This document shows, piece after piece, positions 4,441 to 62,585 of a stretch of DNA of 64,000 nucleotides. The stretch comes from Thermoanaerobaculales bacterium (GTDB taxonomy: Bacteria > Acidobacteriota > Thermoanaerobaculia > Thermoanaerobaculales > Sulfomarinibacteraceae), in NCBI GenBank assembly GCA_035358815.1, contig DAOPQC010000002.1, positions 472,207 to 536,206 of the forward strand, in the 5' to 3' direction. Both the position numbers and the translations under genes were made by a program. The notes below the pieces were generated by a model. That model worked only from the letters and a program-made list of their open reading frames with translations, was not told where the DNA came from and searched no databases. Position 1 is the first letter of the stretch. Each line of letters starts with the position of its first letter.

Positions 4441-4471
4441 CCCTCTCCCCTATCCCCTGACCCCTATTCCC
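4441..4471 (-). repeat. G-tract array on the minus strand (GGGAATA GGGGTCA GGGGATA GGGGAGA GGG)
   Basis: Plus strand reads CCCTCTCCCCTATCCCCTGACCCCTATTCCC. It has five G3-4 runs with 3-4 nt spacers, 10 nt downstream of the valS stop. Confidence 0.8.
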
Positions 4472-7586: not shown

Positions 7587-10262
7587 ATGGCCCCGATGGC
7601 GAAGGCACTGATCATCGTCGAGTCGCCGGCCAAGGCGCGGACCATCTCCAACTTCCTGGGGCCGGGTTACGAGGTGGAGTCGTCAATCGGCCACATCCGC
7701 GACCTCCCGTCGTCCGCTGCCGAGATCCCGGCCAAGCTCAAGAAGGAGCCGTGGTCCCGGCTCGGCGTCGACGTCGCGAACAACTTCACTCCCCTCTACG
7801 TCATCCCCCATGGCAAGAAGGCCCAGGTCGACAAGCTGAAGCGCCGGGTCAAGGAGGCCAGCGAGCTGCTGCTCGCGACCGACGAGGATCGCGAGGGCGA
7901 GGCGATTGCCTGGCACCTGGTCGAGGTCCTCGACCCGAAGTGCCCGGTCCGGCGGCTCGTCTTTCACGAGATCACCAGGCCGGCCATCGAGCGCGCGCTC
8001 GCCGAGCCTCGAGACGTCGACCAGGACCTGGTCGCCGCCCAGGAGGCCCGCCGCATCCTCGACCGGCTGGTCGGCTACGAGGTCTCGCCGGTGCTGTGGC
8101 GCAAGCTGCGGCCGAAGCTCTCGGCGGGCCGGGTGCAGTCGGTGGCGACGCGGCTGGTGGTCGCGCGCGAGGAGGCGCGGATGCGCTTCGTCGCCGCCGG
8201 CTTTGCAGGGCTCGAGGCCCTGCTTGAGACCGGCCGCCCGGGCGAGCGGCCGTTCCGCGCCCGCCTTTCCGAGCTCGCGGAAAGGAAGGTTGCCGGGGGC
8301 AAGGACTTCGACGCCGAGACCGGGCAGCTCAAGGACTCCACCCTGCTGGTGCTCGACGAGGCCGCCGCCGCCGCGCTGCGATCCGCCCTCGAGGGCGCCC
8401 GGTTCCGGGTCGCGGACGTCACCGAGAAGCCCTTCGTCAATCGGCCCTACCCGCCGTTCATGACCTCGACCCTGCAGCAGGAGGCCGGCCGCAAGCTGCG
8501 GTTCAACGCCCAGCGGACGATGCGGGTCGCCCAGCGGCTCTACGAGAACGGCTACATCACCTACATGCGGACCGACTCGCTCACCCTGTCGCGGGAGGCG
8601 ATCCACGCCGCGCGGACGCAGGTCGCCGAGCTCTACGGCGCCGAGTACCTTCCCGACCAGCCGCGGGTGTACCGCTCGAAGTCGAAGAGCGCCCAGGAGG
8701 CTCACGAGGCGATCCGGCCGGCGGGCGACCGCTTCCGGACACCGGAGAGCCTGCGCGGCCGGCTCGACGGCGACGAGCACCGGCTCTACGAGCTGATCTG
8801 GAAGCGGACCCTGGCCTCGCAGATGAAGGACGCGACCGGGCTTCGGTCGAATGTCCGGGTGTCGGCCGACGCTCCCGGCCACGGCCACGCGGTCTTCGCC
8901 GCCACCGGCAAGGTGATCACCTTCGCCGGCTTCCTGCGCGCCTACGTCGAGGGAACGGACGACCCCGAGGCCGAGCTGGCCGATCAGGAACGACCGCTGC
9001 CCAGGCTCTCGACCGGCCAGCCGCTCGAGGCCCGCGCGATCGAGGTCACGGTCCACACCACCCAGCCCCCACCGCGCTACACCGAGGCCAGCCTGGTCAA
9101 GGAGCTGGAGAGCCGCGGCATCGGCCGGCCCTCCACCTACGCGACCATCATCGAGACCATCCAGGACCGCGACTACGTGTGGCGCAAGGGCCAGGCGCTG
9201 GTGCCGACCTTCACCGCGTTTGCGGTCACCCGGCTGCTCGAGCGCCAGCTTCCCGACCTGGTGGACTACGACTTCACCGCCCGCATGGAGGACGAGCTCG
9301 ATGCCATCGCCCGCGGCGACCGCGAGGCCGCGCCGTGGCTGCACGACTTCTACTTCGGGACCGAGCAGGGCGGCGGCAGCCGCACCATGCGCGAGGGCCT
9401 CCACCGCCTGGTCAGCGACGCGAACGCGGAGGTCGACCCTCGCGAAGCGTCGCGGATCACCGACCTCGGTGTGACCCCCGACGGCAAGCAGGTGGTGGTG
9501 CGGATCGGCCGCTACGGGCCCTACCTCGAGATCGATGGGCAGCGGGCCTCGGTGCCCGACCGCTTGCCGCCGGACGAGCTGACCGTGGAGAAGGCGGTCG
9601 AGCTGATCGATCGTGGTGCAGGCGGCGGCCGCCGCCTCGGCGATGACACCGCCACCGGCCAGCCGGTGATGCTGCGTCATGGACGCTTCGGACACTACGT
9701 CCAGCTCGGCGAGAACGGCGGTGAAGAGAAGGCCCGGATGGCGAGCCTGTGGCCGTCGATGGACCCGGAGGCGGTGACGCTCGAGGACGCGCTCATGCTG
9801 CTGTCGTTCCCGCGCGCGGTCGGCGCCCACCCGGAGTCCGGCAAGCCGATCATGGCCGCGTTCGGCCGCTATGGGCCATACATCGGCTGCGACGGCGACA
9901 ACCGCACCCTGCCCGACTACGAGTCGCTCCTGACCATGACGGTCGACGGCGCGGTCGAGCTCCTGAAGCAGCCCAAAGGCCGCAGCCGGCGCTCCGGGTC
10001 TCCGTCCGCCCTCGCCGAGCTCGGGCCCCACCCCTCCTCCGGAGCTTCCATCAAGGTCATGAAAGGCCGCTTCGGCCCCTACGTCAGCGACGGCACCGTC
10101 CACGCCTCGCTGCCCAAAGGCGCGGACCCGGCAGCGGTCACGATCGAGGCCGCAGTCGACCTGCTCGCCGCCCGCGAGGACAAGCTGAGGAGCCAGGGCA
10201 AGGACCCCCGCGCCCCAAAGAAGCGCGGAGCCCGCCGCCGCCCCCGCGCATCCAGGGGTTAG
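7587..10262 (+). CDS. topA: DNA topoisomerase I (type IA) with Zn-finger-less C-terminal repeats and a basic tail
   Basis: This is the real part of the 1839-aa run-on ORF. It starts MAPMAKALIIVESPAKARTI (TOPRIM), with an alternative ATG at 7596. It contains the active-site region YITYMRTDS, repeated GRFGPYV/GRYGPY modules and a KKRGARRRPRASRG tail. Confidence 0.95.
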   Translation: MAPMAKALIIVESPAKARTISNFLGPGYEVESSIGHIRDLPSSAAEIPAKLKKEPWSRLGVDVANNFTPLYVIPHGKKAQVDKLKRRVKEASELLLATDEDREGEAIAWHLVEVLDPKCPVRRLVFHEITRPAIERALAEPRDVDQDLVAAQEARRILDRLVGYEVSPVLWRKLRPKLSAGRVQSVATRLVVAREEARMRFVAAGFAGLEALLETGRPGERPFRARLSELAERKVAGGKDFDAETGQLKDSTLLVLDEAAAAALRSALEGARFRVADVTEKPFVNRPYPPFMTSTLQQEAGRKLRFNAQRTMRVAQRLYENGYITYMRTDSLTLSREAIHAARTQVAELYGAEYLPDQPRVYRSKSKSAQEAHEAIRPAGDRFRTPESLRGRLDGDEHRLYELIWKRTLASQMKDATGLRSNVRVSADAPGHGHAVFAATGKVITFAGFLRAYVEGTDDPEAELADQERPLPRLSTGQPLEARAIEVTVHTTQPPPRYTEASLVKELESRGIGRPSTYATIIETIQDRDYVWRKGQALVPTFTAFAVTRLLERQLPDLVDYDFTARMEDELDAIARGDREAAPWLHDFYFGTEQGGGSRTMREGLHRLVSDANAEVDPREASRITDLGVTPDGKQVVVRIGRYGPYLEIDGQRASVPDRLPPDELTVEKAVELIDRGAGGGRRLGDDTATGQPVMLRHGRFGHYVQLGENGGEEKARMASLWPSMDPEAVTLEDALMLLSFPRAVGAHPESGKPIMAAFGRYGPYIGCDGDNRTLPDYESLLTMTVDGAVELLKQPKGRSRRSGSPSALAELGPHPSSGASIKVMKGRFGPYVSDGTVHASLPKGADPAAVTIEAAVDLLAAREDKLRSQGKDPRAPKKRGARRRPRASRG

Positions 10263-10325
10263 GATCTGGGATCTGGGGGATGGGGCCCTTCTCCCGTTCC
10301 CGCTCCCGTTCCCGTCCCCGTTCCC
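10261..10325. repeat. G-rich arm (AGGATCTGGGATCTGGGGGATGGGG) abutting a C-rich hexamer arm (CTCCCG TTCCCG CTCCCG TTCCCG TCCCCG TTCCC)
   Basis: Begins inside the topA stop codon TAG (10260-10262). The first 21 nt are identical to 62467-62487. Confidence 0.85.
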
Positions 10326-10331
10326 GAGACG

Positions 10332-10607: not shown

Positions 10608-10764
10608 TGTCGGGCGCCCGAACAGGCGTGAGGGGTTGGGGAATAGGGGTTCGCTCCCGACTCCGCCTCCGTGCCCCACCCGCTTCCGCTTCCGATGTGA
10701 TGGCTTTCAACGCAGCGGCGTTACCCTGGGTTCGAAGGTGGGGGTGGTGTGCACGATCCCACTC

Positions 10765-10788
10765 GGGAACGGGAACGGGAACGGGAAC
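10765..10788 (+). repeat. (GGGAAC)4 G-tract microsatellite
   Basis: Perfect hexamer repeat about 105 nt upstream of the YdjC-family gene start. Further G-tract (10632-10649) and CTTCCG (10681-10693) fragments occur in the same gap. Confidence 0.9.
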
Positions 10789-10894
10789 GACGGAACGCCC
10801 GAGGCGTCCGCCCTCCGGAACTCGGGGATTGACGAAAAGGAAATTAAGATACGCAGGTAGGACGGATCGTGCCAGGTCCGCGGCGGAGGTGGAG

Positions 10895-37502: not shown

Positions 37503-37590
37503 GGTGCGCTCAGCCCTCCCCCTCCCCGTGCCCGACCCGAGGGCTCCACCGTTGCGTTCGGCCGGACGCGGGGCTCCTCCGCACCCCGTC

Positions 37591-37623
37591 GGGAACGGGA
37601 ACGGGAACGGGAACGGGAACGGG
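37591..37623 (+). repeat. (GGGAAC)5GGG G-tract microsatellite
   Basis: Perfect repeat between the receptor-gene terminator and the sulfatase-TPR gene start. Confidence 0.9.
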
Positions 37624-43787: not shown

Positions 43788-43792
43788 GCTTC

Positions 43793-43960
43793 GTTCCCGC
43801 CCCGCTCCCGTTCCCGCTCCCGTTCCCGGACGTGCGGTCACGCGCTGTGGGGCTGCGCCGCCTGCACTGCCTCGGACCAACGCCGCGCAGCGATGGAGCA
43901 GAGAGTGCCCACTTCAACGCCACATTCGGGAAGGGGTACGGGAACGGGTACGGGAACGGG
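43793..43960. repeat. intergenic element with a C-rich hexamer arm (43796-43827), a 100-nt core and a G-rich hexamer arm (43928-43960)
   Basis: The arms are imperfect inverted repeats ((C/T)TCCCG versus GGGAAC/GGGTAC). The core shares TCGGACCAACGCCG with the 272-bp tandem unit. The element fills the gap between two convergent GH5 genes. Confidence 0.8.
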
Positions 43961-43970
43961 CCGAGCTCCG

Positions 43971-45077
43971 CTAGGGCACCCACCTCCCCCCCGGCCTCCT
44001 GATCTCGGGTGACGCGCACCTCCCCGTGACCATCGAGTAGGGCCGCACCGCGGTGTTGGCGATGCTGTGCTCGTCGGTCACCGACGCCTCGAGCCCCCAG
44101 CCGAAGAGCGTGTCGTAGGTGCTGTCGCTGGTCATGTCGAGCCAGGTCTGGGGGTTGTTGCCGGGGCCCCACTCCCAGGGGAACATGCCGATGTCGTCAA
44201 GGTCGGTCTGCTCGAGGATGGTCAGGTAGGGAATCTCACCCGAGGGCGTCATGTCCCAGCGGTTGCCGAACTCGCCGACCATCAGCGGCAGCTCCAGCGC
44301 CACCGACTCGGCGAGCTCGTCGATCACCGTCTGCGCGGTGTAGCCCCACCTCCGCGGCCACCACATGTGGATCGAGAAGATGAGGTTGTGGTCCGGGTCG
44401 GCGGCGATCAGCGCCGGGCCTTCCGACTGCAGCACGTCGATGTTCTTGCCCCAGTCCGTGCCGTCGATGACCAGCGGCACGTGGATCCCGGCGGCGCGCA
44501 TCCGCCCCACCGCCTCCCGGTAGCCCTCGCGGAACTCGTCGTCGGTCACGCTCGCATCACCGACCTCGTTGCCGATGTTGATCAGCAGGTGGCGCCGGTG
44601 CCTGGCGACGACAGCGAGGACCTCGGACGAGGTCCACCAGTCGACCAGCGCGGGGAGCATCGACCAGTCGCCAATACCGTCGTGCAGCTCGATCAGCGGA
44701 ATCAGGCCTTCCTTGACGCAGTTGGTGATCGCCGTGTCGAGCTCCGCCGGGGTGCCGCTCATCAGCCAGACCATGCGCACCGAGTTGGCGCCGGTCTTCG
44801 CGATCTCGCGGCACGAGGGCACGCCGTCGATGTCCATCCAGATGATCATCTTGTTGATGCCGCGCAGCACGACCTTCTCGCCGCAGCGGTCGTAGAGGTG
44901 GCGGCCAACGACCCGGAAGCCGTCGCTCGTCGCTTCGGCTGCCTGCCCCACGCTGACAGCCGACGGCGCGGCCGCGACCGAGGCGGTCGATGCCGCCTCG
45001 GCGGTGAGCACCGAGAGAAGCAGCGCGACGACGAGGCCGGCGATGGCGCGCACCAGACCCTCCGACGACTCCAGCAT
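43971..45077 (-). CDS. GH5 (clan GH-A) endo-beta-mannanase-like, secreted
   Basis: 368 aa with an N-terminal hydrophobic signal. Motifs: INIGNEVG (acid/base Glu) and MVGEFG (nucleophile Glu). The start-codon choice is uncertain because the SD is weak. Confidence 0.8.
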   Translation of the reverse strand: MLESSEGLVRAIAGLVVALLLSVLTAEAASTASVAAAPSAVSVGQAAEATSDGFRVVGRHLYDRCGEKVVLRGINKMIIWMDIDGVPSCREIAKTGANSVRMVWLMSGTPAELDTAITNCVKEGLIPLIELHDGIGDWSMLPALVDWWTSSEVLAVVARHRRHLLINIGNEVGDASVTDDEFREGYREAVGRMRAAGIHVPLVIDGTDWGKNIDVLQSEGPALIAADPDHNLIFSIHMWWPRRWGYTAQTVIDELAESVALELPLMVGEFGNRWDMTPSGEIPYLTILEQTDLDDIGMFPWEWGPGNNPQTWLDMTSDSTYDTLFGWGLEASVTDEHSIANTAVRPYSMVTGRCASPEIRRPGGRWVP

Positions 45078-45121
45078 AGCCGTTCTCGTGCCGCCGGCCG
45101 CGTGCTACGTCGCGACGTGTC

Positions 45122-45193
45122 GGGCACGGGAACGGGGACGGGCACGGGAACGGGGACGGGCACGGGAACGGGGACGGGCACGGGAACGGGCAC
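45122..45193 (+). repeat. 18-mer G-tract array (GGGCAC GGGAAC GGGGAC) x4, giving 12 evenly spaced G3-4 runs
   Basis: Read directly from the sequence. It starts 45 nt upstream of the mannanase ATG (45077, minus strand), and its last 18 nt overlap the first 272-bp unit. Confidence 0.95.
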
Positions 45194-46128
45194 CCGCCCA
45201 CCCGCGAATGAACCGCTACGAGCGCCAAGAGCGCAAAGTCAACGAAACTCAAACCAAGACGACTGCTTCGCGCCCTTCGCGCCTTGGCGGTTCAAATGGC
45301 CAGCCAACATCCGCCGCGTCCTCCGCGTCCTCGGCGGTTCGATCTGTCCGCAATCGCTTCGGACCAACGCCGGCACCTCGCACGCGGAGCGCGTTCCGCG
45401 CCGCCGGCCGCGCCGCCGGTCGCCAACTCCCTCAGCCACCTCCTCTCGGGAACGGGAACGGCCACCCGCCCACCCGCGATTGAACCGCTGAGATCGCCAA
45501 GAGCGCAAAGTCAACGAAACTTAAACCAAGACGACTGCTTCGCGCCCTTCGCGCCTTGGCGGTTCAAATGGCCAGCCAACATCCGCCGCGTCCTCCGCGT
45601 CCTCGGCGGTTCGATCTGTCCGCAATCGCTTCGGACCAACGCCGGCACCTCGCACGCGGAGCGCGTTCCGCGCCGCCGGCCGCGCCGCCGGTCGCCAACT
45701 CCCTCAGCCACCTCCTCTCGGGAACGGGAACGGCCACCCGCCCACCCGCGATTGAACCGCTGAGATCGCCAAGAGCGCAAAGTCAACGAAACTTAAACCA
45801 AGACGACTGCTTCGCGCCCTTCGCGCCTTGGCGGTTCAAATGGCCAGCCAACATCCGCCGCGTCCTCCGCGTCCTCGGCGGTTCGATCTGTCCGCAATCG
45901 CTTCGGACCAACGCCGGCACCTCGCACGCGGAGCGCGTTCCGCGCCGCCGGCCACGTGTCCACTCGGACCCTTCCTCAGCCATCTCCTCTCGGGAACGGG
46001 AACGGGGACGGGAACGGGAACGGCCACCCGCCCACCCGCGATTGAACCGCTGAGAGCGCCAAGAGCGCAAAGTCAACGAAACTTAAACCAAGACGACCGC
46101 TTCGCGCCCTTCGCGCCTTGGCGGTTCA
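45176..46128. repeat. tandem array of 3.4 copies of a 272-bp structured unit
   Basis: Units begin at 45176, 45448, 45720 and 45992, a period of exactly 272 bp. Units 2 and 3 are identical for about 235 nt. Unit 4 has an expanded hexamer tract and is truncated at 46128. The ORF track shows the same 91-aa peptide three times. Confidence 0.95.
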
Positions 46129-46211
46129 GCCTCCGCGTTCGGACGCGGATCCGGCTTCGCCTACGGCTCTGCCGTGACGAGAACGGAAGTGGGCGCGGAA
46201 GCGGGTCGAAC

Positions 46212-46267
46212 ACCGCCTCACCGCCTCACTGCCTCACTGCCCCACTGCCTCACTGCCCCACTGCCTC
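46212..46267. repeat. octamer tandem repeat (CACYGCCY) x7
   Basis: Sequence reads CACCGCCT CACCGCCT CACTGCCT CACTGCCC CACTGCCT CACTGCCC CACTGCCT. It runs into the SDR stop codon (46266-46268). Confidence 0.9.
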
Positions 46268-47033
46268 ATATCGCCGGCATGACGTTGCCGCCGCACACCG
46301 GGATGAAGGCGCCGGTGATGAAGCCGGCGAGGTCAGAGGCCAGAAGCGCGACGGCGTTCGCGACGTCCTGGTCGGTGCCGCGCCGCCGCAGCGGGACGGC
46401 CGCCTCGTACTCCGGCTGACGCTCGGTGCCCGCGCTGCGGTGGCGGTCGGAGACCATCCAGCCCGGCGCCACCTGATTGACCGTGATGCCGTGCGGGCCG
46501 AGCTCGCGCGCCAGCACCCTAAAGAGCCCGTCCATCCCGCGCTTGCCGGCGGCGTAGGCGGATTGGGTCTCGAAGCACTGCATCGCGCACTCGGTGTTGA
46601 TGCCGATCACCCGGCCGCGGCCGCGTGCGATCATGCCGGGCGCGAAAGCCTTCACCAGGTGGACGCTGTGCAGGACGCACGAGGCGAACTGGCTCGCGAA
46701 GTCCTCGACCGGTTGGTCGAGGACCGGCTGCCAGTGGTACTGGATGACCGCATTGGCGACGATGACGTCGGCGGGCCCGAGCTCGGCCGCCACCGCGTCG
46801 CGCATCGCCTCGACCGACTCCAGCGACGTGACGTCCGCCTGGACGGCGATCGCCCGTACCCCGCTCGACCGCAGCTCCTCGAGCAGGGCCGCGGCCCGCC
46901 CCTGCCCGCGGTGGTAGTGCACCGCCACTGCGGCGCCGGCCCTCCCCAGCGTGCGGGCGATCACCCGGCCGAGCTCGCCGCTCGCCCCGGTCACCACGGC
47001 CACCCGTCCTTGCAGATCAATCGCGAGCCTCAT
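46266..47033 (-). CDS. short-chain dehydrogenase/reductase (FabG-like SDR)
   Basis: The start is reset to ATG 47033 ([22 protein letters not shown], the TGxxxGxG motif) after GAGGAGG. It contains a YAAGK catalytic Tyr-x3-Lys. Confidence 0.85.
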
Positions 47034-47167
47034 CGGTTCCTCCTCAGCGAATGACGTCCTGTGGCATCTGCTGCCAATTCTCGCCTGTCCGCAAGACAGC
47101 GCAAGGGCCTTGGCGAACGCGCCTCGACCGCCGACAGGCCGTGCTAGGCTCCGCGCGGGAGGGCGCC

Positions 47168-49594: not shown

Positions 49595-49826
49595 CTCGCT
49601 TCCGCTTCCGCGCCCGCTTCCGAACGACGGCGCGAAGGCTGGACCTGCGCCCCGTCCCGCCTCCGCTTCCGGGCCCGTCAGCAGATGTTCGAACCGCCGA
49701 GACCGCAGAGGGCGCGGAGAGGTGCGGCGCAAGACCACTCCTCCGCGTGCTCAGCGTGCTCAGCGGTTCAACACAGAATCCGGAAGCGGAAGCGGATGCG
49801 GGCGCGGAAGCGGGTGGGGGTGGAGG
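49595..49826. repeat. intergenic element with a CTTCCG-type arm, a central 86-nt hairpin and a GGAAGC-type arm
   Basis: Arms 49602-49622 and 49793-49813 are complementary at 20 of 21 positions. The central imperfect hairpin spans 49687-49772 (GAACCGC...GCGGTTC). The element fills the gap between the convergent GH94 and lipoprotein genes. Confidence 0.85.
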
Positions 49827-49829
49827 CGC

Positions 49830-51794
49830 CTACCGCGGCTCGCGCAGCACCCTCCGGATGACCTCGGCCTTGGCGGGGTCGGCCGCAATGTGATCCCACT
49901 GCCAGAACACGACGCCGGCCGAGGGCGGCTCGAGCGCGGCCCGCAGGCCGGCCTCGAGCTCGTCGACCGACAGCGCCTCGTCCCGGTAGGCCGCCGCGAC
50001 CTGGATGCTCGGCAGCACCGGGCAGCGTCCGGCCTCGGCGACGTCGCGGACCACCGATGCGATCCACTCCGGCGGACGATAGAGCATGTGCGCGTAGCAC
50101 ATCGGTGACAGGTAGTCGGCGAGGTGGCCGAGGGCCGCGCGGTCCTGGCCGGCGATGCGGCCGATCGCGCCCTCGAAGTCGCCGGTCCGCCACGGCACGA
50201 CGTGGAGGTTCACCCGCAGGTTCGACTTGACCGCCTTGGCAGCCTGGATGATCTGCCACGCCAGCGAGGAGATCGTGTCCTCCTTGAAGGCGGTCCACTC
50301 GGCGGCCGCGTTGGTGCGGATCCAGGCCGCGGCGGCGACCGGGTCGTCGACCGGCAGCTGCGACCCCGGAGCGAGGGTCGCGGCGAAGCGCCGCAGGCAC
50401 TTCGGGCAGTAGCAGGCGTCGGGCAGGCGCGCCGGGTCGGCGTCGGGCCGCACCTCTTCCCAGAACACGAAGTCGCGGATGAAGTCGAGGCTGAGGCCGT
50501 CCGGCCGCAGCTTCTGCACGAGCGCGACCGCCTCGTCGACCCGGCGCTGCCGCAGCTCGTCCCGCGACGGGCAGGCGAACTCCACCCAGTCGTCCTTCGC
50601 CGGCTTACCGTCGGCGGTCACCGCAGAGAGGCTGGGGTCCGCCGCGAGCGCCTCCGGCGCGTAAAGCACCGGGAAGATCACGTAGATCTGGATGCCGGCT
50701 TGCCTCGCGAGCTCTCGGAAGCCCTCGCGCGAGGCGAGCTGCTCGCTCGCGAACACGTGCGTGACGCCGAGCTCCCGCCACCCGGCGAACAGCTCGCCGA
50801 GATCACCGTCAAAGTCGTAGATCTTCACCCCGACGATCGGCCGCGGCGTCGGGTCGTAGCCGTTGGCAGGCGACGCCGCACCGGCAGCTACGAAACCGGC
50901 ATCCGGGCCGGGCGGGAAGACGTCGAGGACCGTGAAGTCGACCCAGTAGAGCCCGGCCGCGTTCGGCACCGCGGCCAGGATCGCCCGGCCGATGTCGCCC
51001 GGCGGGTCAGCGAGCTGGCGCCACCACGGCCGGTCTGACGGGTAGCCGAACTGGAAGGCCACTGGCGCCGGCACGAAGCTGCGGCCCCACGCCGCGAACT
51101 CCTCGACCATCGCGTCGAGCGAGGGCAGGATCTGGCTGTCGTCGACGAACAGCAGGCCGTCGCGCAGCGTCGGCGGCAGCTTGGACTGCTCCCAGTGCTT
51201 GAGGAACAGGCGGTAGCGCGGGTCGTGGCTGCGGATCGCCGCCAGCCACGCCGCCGCCTCCTCGTCGGTGACCGGCTTGCCCTCGGGACGCTCGGTCGAC
51301 TGGTACCACTCGACGTCGATGCCGAAGCCGGCCACGCTCGGGTGGCTGCCGTAGCGGCCGAGCACGAGGTGGATGAGCTCCGCGACCGGCGCGTGGCCGG
51401 GCTCGACCTGCAGCCAGACCCGGAAGCCATTGCGGTCGAAGAGGTCGAGGGCCGCCTGGTTGTGGTCCTCCGGCACCGCGGTGATGAGTGGGCTTGACGG
51501 CTCGGCAGGGAAGTTGAGCTCGGTGCCGTCGCCGCGCAACCGGCCGACGATCCAGATCGTCTCGGGCACCGCGCCGTCGAAGCGCGACGCCATCTCCTGT
51601 CCGACCCGCAGCCAGTACTCGGGCCCGGGGTCGCGCTGCGGCCCGTAGGCCGAGAAGCGGAAGCCGGCGCCGAGCGGCCGGCCGGCGCCGGGCTCCGGGC
51701 CGCCGTCACCCGCCGAGCCGCAGCCCATCGGGAGGAGCCCGACGGCCACCGCCACCATCGAGAGCCACCCGAGCCTGAACCGCGCAAACCTCAT
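49830..51794 (-). CDS. lipoprotein with two tandem TIM-barrel-like, glycoside-hydrolase-like domains of unknown specificity
   Basis: 654 aa. Lipobox LLPMGC. The second half (DFIRDFVFWEE, CYCPKCLRRF, NLHVVPW) resembles uncharacterised GH-like (GHL/DUF4015-type) families. An ATGA overlap links it to the upstream ROK kinase gene. Confidence 0.7.
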   Translation of the reverse strand: MRFARFRLGWLSMVAVAVGLLPMGCGSAGDGGPEPGAGRPLGAGFRFSAYGPQRDPGPEYWLRVGQEMASRFDGAVPETIWIVGRLRGDGTELNFPAEPSSPLITAVPEDHNQAALDLFDRNGFRVWLQVEPGHAPVAELIHLVLGRYGSHPSVAGFGIDVEWYQSTERPEGKPVTDEEAAAWLAAIRSHDPRYRLFLKHWEQSKLPPTLRDGLLFVDDSQILPSLDAMVEEFAAWGRSFVPAPVAFQFGYPSDRPWWRQLADPPGDIGRAILAAVPNAAGLYWVDFTVLDVFPPGPDAGFVAAGAASPANGYDPTPRPIVGVKIYDFDGDLGELFAGWRELGVTHVFASEQLASREGFRELARQAGIQIYVIFPVLYAPEALAADPSLSAVTADGKPAKDDWVEFACPSRDELRQRRVDEAVALVQKLRPDGLSLDFIRDFVFWEEVRPDADPARLPDACYCPKCLRRFAATLAPGSQLPVDDPVAAAAWIRTNAAAEWTAFKEDTISSLAWQIIQAAKAVKSNLRVNLHVVPWRTGDFEGAIGRIAGQDRAALGHLADYLSPMCYAHMLYRPPEWIASVVRDVAEAGRCPVLPSIQVAAAYRDEALSVDELEAGLRAALEPPSAGVVFWQWDHIAADPAKAEVIRRVLREPR

Positions 51795-62466: not shown

Positions 62467-62585
62467 AGGATCTGGGATCTGGGGGATAGGATCTAGGGCC
62501 GCCGCCCGCCCGCGACCACTGCCGGCTCTCCCGCGGGGCCCGCCTCGCGTCCTCCCTATTCCCCAGATCCTAGATCCCAGATCCT
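62467..62585. repeat. 119-bp element with GGATCT/GGGGATA-type inverted arms
   Basis: The outer 14 bp form a perfect inverted repeat (AGGATCTGGGATCT ... AGATCCCAGATCCT). The inner arm modules are shuffled and the core is a 55-nt GC-rich segment. The left arm is identical for 21 nt to 10261-10281. Confidence 0.85.

Follow-up and report, generated by a model that had tools for sequence, protein, structure and literature searches.

The described repeats closest to the one studied here are the repetitive extragenic palindromes (REPs) and the bacterial interspersed mosaic elements (BIMEs). A REP is an imperfect palindrome of 20-40 nt, with a GTAG or CGTC tetranucleotide left unpaired at the base of its stem (PMC3333891, PMC3733652). 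In BIME-2 clusters several copies stand in tandem; they are well conserved at any one locus, and their number differs between strains (PMC3333891). Here we analyse a 1.15-kb repeat block in a Thermoanaerobaculales bacterium, located in a stretch of 64,000 nt (GenBank assembly GCA_035358815.1, contig DAOPQC010000002.1, positions 472,207 to 536,206) that we refer to as the window. The block sits in a spacer that runs from the stop codon of a short-chain dehydrogenase (SDR) gene to the start codon of a GH5 mannanase gene. These are minus-strand genes, the SDR gene being directly upstream of the block and the mannanase gene directly downstream. In our reading its central tandem array is probably a cluster of a dispersed palindromic element, organised in the manner of a BIME-2 cluster or another variable-number tandem repeat (VNTR) and without a dedicated product, a view that we hold with moderate confidence.

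Other small bacterial repeats share some of these traits. The pneumococcal BOX and the Neisseria Correia elements are small and non-coding, with inverted ends and a variable interior, and the number of boxB copies in tandem varies. In contrast to these and to miniature inverted-repeat transposable elements (MITEs), the element described here has no target-site duplication and no sharp ends, and it is found across phyla rather than being restricted to a genus. The mycobacterial interspersed repetitive units (MIRUs) are intergenic VNTRs between co-directional genes, with a copy number that is polymorphic among strains. The unit here is several times longer, 272 bp, and is internally composite, combining a hairpin with microsatellites.

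Tandem Repeats Finder (TRF) reports three arrays in the block: the 18-mer CGGGCACGGGAACGGGGA at 45121-45190 (3.9 copies, 100% matches), a period of 272 at 45175-46128 (3.4 copies, 94% matches, score 1599) and the octamer CACTGCCT at 46211-46268 (7.2 copies, 90% matches). The features of the block are as follows.

45122..45193, plus strand: 18-mer array (GGGCAC GGGAAC GGGGAC) x ~4, with 12 G-runs
45176..45447, plus strand: unit 1 of the 272-bp repeat (TRF; nhmmer E=9e-90)
45448..45719, plus strand: unit 2 of the 272-bp repeat (TRF, profile match), made of hexamers (45448-45461), CCACCCGCCCACCCGCG (45462-45478), the hairpin (45480-45567), a spacer, the third arm (45588-45616) and a GC-rich tail (45617-45719)
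45480..45567, no strand: imperfect palindrome of ~88 nt with left arm TTGAACCGCTGAGATCGCCAAGAGCGCAAAG, a 27-nt loop and right arm CTTCGCGCCCTTCGCGCCTTGGCGGTTCAA; the other hairpin copies are at 45208-45295, 45752-45839 and 46042-46129
45588..45616, plus strand: third arm GCGTCCTCCGCGTCCTCGGCGGTTCGATC, in right-arm orientation, with further copies at 45316-45344 and 45860-45888
45720..45991, plus strand: unit 3 of the 272-bp repeat (TRF, unit comparison)
45992..46129, plus strand: partial unit 4, with a 32-nt hexamer tract, the CCACCC segment and the hairpin at 46042-46129, ending before the spacer and the third arm
46130..46210, no strand: unique tail with hexamer-type sequence GGAAGYGGGCGCGGAAGCGGG; homologous tails are found in the related loci L141 and L185
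46211..46268, plus strand: octamer array CACTGCCY x7.2 (TRF), which abuts and overlaps the SDR stop codon

A preliminary description of the block, made from the letters alone, had given much of this anatomy, which is confirmed, the octamer array included. Its 272-bp period and 3.4 copies agree with TRF. It had units 2 and 3 identical at first and then separated by same-length substitutions, and we find 234 identical nucleotides and then 12 substitutions, which lie within unit positions 235-264 and include no indel. The point changes it noted in unit 1 amount to 7 positions differing from unit 2. The expansion it described in the hexamer tract of unit 4 is seen in the spacing of the hairpin starts (272, 272 and 290 bp), where the extra 18 bp correspond to the longer tract. 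Two details had to be amended. The 18-mer array stands, but the last hexamer of its fourth copy is GGGCAC and not GGGGAC; and of the four parts ascribed to each unit the ~90-nt hairpin stands, while the second "CGN-periodic segment" was under-described, as it contains a third copy of the arm.

Each hairpin arm is itself repetitive: it consists of three tandem repeats of 8-9 nt (CGC-S-AAG-NN), the outermost of which runs into GGTTCA. The third arm is 72% complementary to the left arm in an inverted-repeat search. The 30-nt right arm occurs 4 times in the window against an expectation of 0.00, and the hexamer dimer GGGAACGGGAAC, allowing at most one mismatch, occurs 31 times against 0.45. The hairpin at 45480-45567 has a predicted folding energy of -36.6 kcal/mol on the plus strand and -46.6 on the minus strand (z -6.3 and -6.5), in agreement with the earlier expectation that the minus strand would fold better. 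For the complete unit the gain over shuffled sequences is only marginal (z -2.1 and -1.7). The units adjoin one another and are repeated over their whole length; the absence of unique spacers sets the array apart from a CRISPR.

The block is gene-free, non-coding repetitive DNA, as the preliminary description had also concluded. Its open reading frames (ORFs), up to 165 aa long, have no Pfam match, and between the SDR and mannanase genes the spacer is empty in the gene calls of both L001 and L002. We rejected a small-protein reading of these ORFs on the lack of Pfam matches and because the reading frame shifts from one unit to the next, 272 not being divisible by 3. Further, neither a sigma-70-like promoter nor a U-tract terminator was found across 44900-46500.

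The locus was recovered from ten assemblies by exact look-up of the mannanase protein, and the spacers were compared directly. In the window, to which L001 is identical, the spacer is 1188 bp long, with 3.4 units and four copies of the 18-mer. In L002, a 580-kb contig from a different sample, it is 1206 bp long, with the same 3.4 units and one additional 18-mer; unit 3 of L002 bears private single-nucleotide variants (SNVs), and all three of its full units can be told apart by SNVs. In L003 the spacer is 800 bp long and contains 2.4 units with variants of their own, no 18-mer array and about two octamers. The copy number of the 18-mer is thus 0, 4 or 5 across strains. The remaining assemblies fail at this point: L004 and L005, both scaffolds of metagenome-assembled genomes (MAGs), have N-gaps within the array, and six contigs (L006-L010 and L184) terminate in it or just ahead of it.

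These broken contigs and gaps are what speaks for an assembly artefact, in which a single element has been inflated through mis-assembly. Further, the 234 nt common to units 2 and 3 of the window mean that short reads do not fix the number of unit-2-type copies. However, the independent L002 assembly keeps three full and mutually distinct units, L003 has 2.4 units carrying its own variants, and two diverged units are seen in four independent assemblies of a related species. We therefore regard an artefact as very improbable. Because the independent L002 has distinguishable units and L003 has another copy number, the array is real and strain-polymorphic, and it is hard on short-read assemblers. 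A metagenome scan with a unit-specific 22-mer returned a single contig (L184), so the collection evidently lacks array-carrying contigs from the Joint Genome Institute (JGI). In addition, close homologues of the mannanase (P0001-P0013) are nearly all on contigs of 1-3 kb, which fits repeat-laden spacers breaking assemblies in many samples.

Related species show the same spacer in other states. In L141, a 327-kb contig from an uncultured Holophagae MAG, the mannanase and SDR genes are arranged as in the window, and within ~395 bp their spacer has the element once, as hexamers, CCACCC segment, hairpin, spacer and third arm, with a hexamer and octamer tail after it. In a second related species, represented by four independent assemblies (L185-L188), the mannanase shows 81% protein and 86.9% DNA identity; here the spacer has two units that are 76% alike, reproduced in all four assemblies. 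The first of these in L185 (unit A) has a decayed hairpin of another arm subtype and already possesses the GC-rich tail that the units of the window have. Within the species of the window the units are 92-100% alike, and the last partial unit of L003 is the closest to the single copy of L141 (84.9%). Between species, substitutions at this orthologous locus fall in the left arm and the loop, and the right arm is constant. Between L185 and L141 a non-coding element of ~150 nt is 95.4% identical, while the adjacent mannanase genes are 89.3% identical.

One copy, two diverged copies and 2.4-3.4 homogenised copies form, as far as the sequences tell, the series expected when tandem duplication is followed by unequal exchange and concerted evolution. 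Because the relatives hold one copy (L141) or two diverged copies (L185), the array appears to be a lineage-specific amplification with homogenisation, and the recent amplification or concerted evolution that had been proposed from the near-identity of the units is borne out. The full 272-bp profile matches only this orthologous locus in nhmmer searches. Elsewhere only the hairpin segment matches.

In organisation the closest analogue of the locus, one that the preliminary description had not named, is the BIME-2 and atypical BIMEs of E. coli: both are intergenic mosaics of inverted palindromic modules and linkers, arranged head-to-tail at one locus. As in BIME-2, the copies are near-identical within the locus and vary in number between strains, and as in BIMEs the array lies between co-directional genes. 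There are also clear differences. The unit is 272 bp long, compared with ~100 bp for a BIME. Unlike a REP, the arm is a direct threefold repeat of 8-9 nt that does not fold on itself, and a hairpin needs two arms 10-150 nt apart. The terminal GTAG or CGTC tag is absent: the termini read TTGAACC...GGTTCAA, and CGTC occurs only inside some arm variants. Finally, REP families are largely lineage-specific, while the arm sequence here is common to several phyla.

This distribution is best seen with the exact right-arm 19-mer TTCGCGCCTTGGCGGTTCA, which is found at more than 120 loci in species-representative genomes, among the matches listed. The genomes belong to Holophagae, Thermoanaerobaculia and other Acidobacteriota, Planctomycetota, Nitrospirota, Anaerolineae (Chloroflexota), Desulfobacterota, Myxococcota, Methylomirabilales (Methylomirabilota), a Luteolibacter (Verrucomicrobiota), Alpha-, Beta- and Gammaproteobacteria and one cyanobacterial Fischerella. 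Isolates of purple sulfur bacteria (Thiobaca, Marichromatium, Allochromatium and Thiorhodococcus) also carry it. A few of the matches, in Streptomyces, Dehalococcoidia and at one Planctomycetota locus, are coding or due to chance. With arms in about ten phyla and an element conserved at the orthologous locus, the unit is not an isolated oddity. The preliminary description had named a lack of conservation anywhere else as something that would speak against it; this does not apply, for the same two reasons.

The 19-mer is rarely alone. An inverted partner arm lies within 170 nt of 69 of the 118 right arms (58%), compared with 1 of 122 in a displaced control, again among the matches listed. The resulting paired-arm elements are 57-220 bp long, with interiors of 10-150 nt that are unrelated to each other. 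Arms also occur singly, as direct tandems and as a hairpin with an extra right arm; this last layout, which is that of the 272-bp unit, is also seen in L069, L082, L097, L116, L158 and L173. Locally the density of arms reaches ~2 per kb in other genomes, against 0.012 per kb in shuffled sequence. In a crude survey of gene context, 28 elements lie between co-directional genes, 7 between divergent and 4 between convergent genes.

Some lineages have built composites on the same arms. One Thermoanaerobaculia MAG (CAZKGM01) has seven near-identical copies of a repeat of ~170 nt (L086, L091, L095, L131, L143, L153 and L168), in which the hairpin lies within conserved flanks CGTTCTTATAGGCACCGTTTCGAGTGTCGATGAGGCTTGATTG ... 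ATTGTTGCCCCACCGGGATCATGCGTGCG; this is a lineage-specific composite. In Marichromatium isolates (L080, L103, L108, L166, L178 and L180) heptamer microsatellites such as (CTGGTCG)n or (CTGGCGG)n come after the hairpins and have their mirror image on the opposite side, in parallel with the hexamer tracts that flank the elements of the window. A blastn search of plasmids with the consensus hairpin gave no match. On viral contigs the degenerate arm pattern GCGNNCTCRGCGGTTCRA gave 53 single matches, almost all of them in coding sequence or tRNA-like T-arms, and was set aside as unspecific.

A different origin for the array would be transposition: the element would be non-autonomous and MITE-like, the ~30-nt arms would be the terminal inverted repeats (TIRs) of an unidentified transposase, and the array would result from repeated insertion or from end-to-end products. 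The preliminary description had listed this among its candidates, and part of it stands. The elements have inverted arms, a small total size, a variable interior and no coding capacity; they are multi-copy in single genomes, as in the MAG with seven copies; and horizontal spread is the easiest explanation of the cross-phylum distribution. On the other hand, no target-site duplications are found at the borders of the 69 elements, and at several loci the inverted symmetry carries on into the flanking sequence, microsatellites included. Conservation of the repeat reaches past the arms in the copies from Thermoanaerobaculia and Nitrospirota, so the arms are not the ends of the element. Arms are found singly and as direct tandems, and in 120 loci of up to 8 kb no arm pair encloses a transposase-sized interval, other than neighbouring elements. 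Further, head-to-tail units with identical junctions are what duplication predicts, not independent insertions, and the whole unit is restricted to this locus. Transposition is thus a possible but unlikely source of the array. A cluster of integron attC sites with tiny non-coding cassettes (a CALIN, cluster of attC sites lacking integron integrases) would likewise combine imperfect inverted repeats able to form hairpins, an attC-like length and regular spacing. The core sites of attC read RYYYAAC and GTTRRRY; the terminal boxes here, ATTGAAC and GTTCAAA, do not fit them, with GTTCA conserved across the family. The arms have an internal periodicity of 8-9 nt that attC sites lack, and the family is scattered singly in ordinary intergenic regions, so that we give this reading almost no weight.

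The remaining alternatives give the unit a function of its own. At the variable "S" position, the left arm is complementary to the right arm in 48%, 35% and 47% of cases; a permutation test, made on the 47% figure alone, gives an expectation of 31% and p about 0.04. A consensus fold of 26 hairpins has 14 invariant pairs and double changes at 0 of 14, a count that says little about pairing because the search pattern fixed the right arm. On the whole the evidence of selection for pairing is weak. A tandem array of small structured RNAs, one small RNA (sRNA) per unit, would draw on the strong hairpin (z about -6 on both strands, the minus strand being 10 kcal/mol more stable) and on a motif in units 1 and 2, CACCTCCT/AGGAGGTG, that is anti-Shine-Dalgarno-like or Shine-Dalgarno-like. 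However, a complete unit folds barely better than its shuffles, no compensatory pairs are seen among hairpins collected with a fixed right arm, and nothing resembling a promoter or terminator is found. Both strands form the hairpin, arms occur singly, the right arm of unit A in L185 is decayed, and the CCTCC motif is absent from both L185 and L141. No Rfam family is found even at E up to 10, and we consider the sRNA array, which had been proposed earlier, to be quite improbable. An array of binding sites is another reading, also among the earlier candidates: a DNA- or RNA-binding protein would recognise CGC-S-AAG and act as an insulator or tuner of the mannanase gene, with dosage by copy number. 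Conservation of the heptamer core exceeds 90% in unselected left arms, whereas complementarity is not maintained at the paired "S" position; a binding site would be expected to conserve its sequence in this way rather than its pairing. Across species the left arm and loop drift but the right arm does not vary, and between L141 and L185 the element is more conserved than the neighbouring gene. Against this, no candidate protein was identified, consecutive sites 8-9 bp apart do not lie on the same face of the helix, the family occupies every type of intergenic context, and the copy number varies freely among near-identical strains. A dedicated binding array thus seems doubtful for this locus.

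The Rfam searches agree with the earlier remark that the unit was not recognised as a described RNA: in the window there is no match at the gathering score (the best in the region has E=0.7 and 18 bits, compared with a gathering score of 87), and nothing is found at the hairpins in 20 loci from other phyla. One of the contigs with an arm element, from Gemmataceae (L066), has two matches to Acido-Lenti-1 RNA (RF01687, 46.7 bits) at 2771-2816 on the minus and 2901-2946 on the plus strand, ~1.4 kb from its hairpin element. The octamer CACCTCCT of the plus strand in units 1 and 2 (45437-45444 and 45709-45716) reads AGGAGGTG on the minus strand, a perfect Shine-Dalgarno-like octamer; it is changed in unit 3 and absent from the related species, and is probably incidental. 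We also considered and rejected Rho loading by C-rich hexamer tracts after stop codons on the sense strand. This is true of about five tracts and false for others, and downstream of 39 crude gene ends there is no C>G bias (p=0.42). A d(GCGAAGC) mini-hairpin was dropped as well: the arms read GCGAAGG or GCGAAGA, and the closing C is lacking.

The likeness to REPINs (REP doublets forming hairpins) is close in form: two inverted modules of ~30 nt and a spacer make up a long hairpin, and a genome can have many intergenic copies. Unlike in REPINs, the REP-associated tyrosine transposase (RAYT) of a sister strain (NF047646, 81.8 bits) is flanked by GGTTGTGATACCTGGCA and not by the arms. No RAYT gene is present at the corresponding site of the window, and GGTTGTGATACCTGGCA is absent from the window. 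A RAYT/REP reading was rejected on the ground of this other flanking motif in strain L003. The gene itself lies in a 2.3-kb insertion between the GH94 and SDR genes (L003 6126-8432, also in L004; the window site is ~47034-47050). This insertion encodes a 326-aa Y1 transposase that scores 81.8 bits against the NCBIfam model "REP-associated tyrosine transposase", with a cut-off of 80 bits, and has two unannotated ORFs of 97 and 135 aa; it is bracketed by copies of GGTTGTGATACCTGGCA. It resembles the TIR-flanked Y1 transposases reported for Acidobacteria (PMC3733652).

Some points also weigh against the array being a near-neutral, BIME-2-like cluster of a dispersed element. The arms are not small stem-loops and have no GTAG/CGTC tag, and the only RAYT seen is flanked by another motif, so the analogy with REP and BIME is one of organisation and not of membership. 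REPs and BIMEs number more than 100 per genome; here only two arm-bearing loci are found in the 64-kb window, and the copy number in this genome is known from the window alone. Further, the identity of the element between species (86.8-95.4%) compares with 86.9-89.3% for the flanking genes, and conservation at this level suggests constraint or gene conversion rather than pure neutrality.

With these points included, a tandem cluster of the BIME-2/VNTR type is still the explanation that we prefer. The array would grow, shrink and be homogenised by unequal homologous recombination or by replication slippage between units, as the pattern of copy numbers implies, and the 18-mer, hexamer and octamer tracts would change length through slippage. 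By analogy with what has been proposed for REPs and BIMEs, the hairpins in a read-through RNA from the SDR gene could protect the 3' end of the upstream mRNA, and they could damp read-through from the SDR gene into the mannanase gene. The G-quadruplex pattern (at least four runs of three or more G, 1-7 nt apart) is matched by 12 runs at 45122-45190 and by 5 at 45992-46018, as well as by the remaining hexamer tracts of the window. The 12-run tract lies ~44 nt from the mannanase ATG, on the strand that templates mannanase transcription, and from this pattern match such arrays could form G-quadruplexes there. Most likely, in our view, the array is selectively near-neutral and maintained by the same process as the arm family.

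It should be kept in mind that the array alone is a variant of a familiar phenomenon. It stands for the repeat-driven instability of an intergenic spacer, which here breaks short-read assemblies, and it provides a ready-made strain marker for an activated-sludge Acidobacteriota-like lineage. The cross-phylum arm family is the more interesting lead. An identical non-coding 19-mer in purple sulfur isolates and in MAGs of about ten phyla is hard to square with vertical descent alone, and the family looks undescribed: a literature search by sequence string (unrelated primers only) or by keyword found no such family, although an earlier description is possible. We tentatively propose, as a conjecture that may well prove wrong, a pan-bacterial and undescribed family of intergenic palindromes, defined by arms of the form (CGC-S-AAG-NN)x2-4 that end in GGCGGTTCA. 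The arms would be kept by their sequence (the identical 19-mer) and not by their pairing. A common mechanism would maintain them, either a binding protein that is itself conserved or a system of mobilisation or gene conversion that has escaped recognition, and the array upstream of the mannanase gene would be their first BIME-2-like tandem form with a variable copy number. If a common mechanism is true, this would be a rare cross-phylum non-coding element that can be studied in existing comparative genomics and metatranscriptomes.

The genes around the block and the other related features of the window are the following.

43792..43960, no strand: two hexamer tracts inverted relative to each other, (GTTCCC/GCTCCC)n (43792-43828) with (GGGTAC/GGGAAC)n (43927-43960), in the interval separating two convergent GH5 genes
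43971..45077, minus strand: GH5 mannanase gene, ORF of 368 aa (Pfam PF00150, E=7e-10)
45078..45121, no strand: unique spacer of 44 nt from the mannanase ATG to the repeats, read from the sequence
46266..47033, minus strand: SDR gene (Pfam adh_short_C2, E=2e-44)
49686..49776, no strand: solitary related palindrome TTCGAACCGCCGAGACCGCAGAGGGCGCGGAG ... CTCCGCGTGCTCAGCGTGCTCAGCGGTTCAA, found with a regular expression for the arm (fold -52.6 and -53.9 kcal/mol, z -5.7)

Homologues of the mannanase carry the JGI name mannan endo-1,4-beta-mannosidase. The SDR protein has 255 aa in the gene calls of the assemblies, and its ORF stays open back to 47195. In the 44-nt spacer, 26-28 nt resemble a segment in the tail of each unit, with a local alignment score of 32-33; shuffled controls score 16 +/- 2.4, with a maximum of 28. 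A duplication of the mannanase leader together with the unit tail was considered as the origin of this likeness and rejected, as no recent event is needed: the tail is already present in the related species L185.

At the solitary palindrome, 49686-49776, the inverted symmetry likewise carries on into microsatellites. It is bracketed by inverted tracts, (CGCTTC)n at ~49597-49668 and (GAAGCG)n at ~49790-49835. It lies in the spacer downstream of the GH94 gene, which is wholly different between strains (window 49595-49850, L003 2896-3699): in L003 it is 803 bp long and has no hairpin, while in the window it is 236 bp long and has one, and the flanking proteins are nearly identical. Intergenic regions in the lineage of the window turn over wholesale.

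Other spacers of the window contain related pieces. The interior of the hexamer-tract pair at 43792-43960 shares CACTGCCT and the 14-mer TCGGACCAACGCCG with the block, at 43866-43885. Tracts of the (GGGAAC)n type are present at at least five other intergenic sites: 10292-10326 (minus), 10764-10789 (plus), 37590-37623 (plus), 43792-43828 (minus) and 43927-43960 (plus). All of them fit the G-quadruplex pattern, and their orientation to gene ends is inconsistent. In general the spacers of the source genome seem to be put together, mosaic-like, from a few recurring modules. Two exact copies of GGATCTGGGATCTGGGGGAT are found just past gene ends, at 10262-10281 and 62468-62487, and GGGAATAGGGGT also has two copies, at 4460-4471 on the minus and 10639-10650 on the plus strand.

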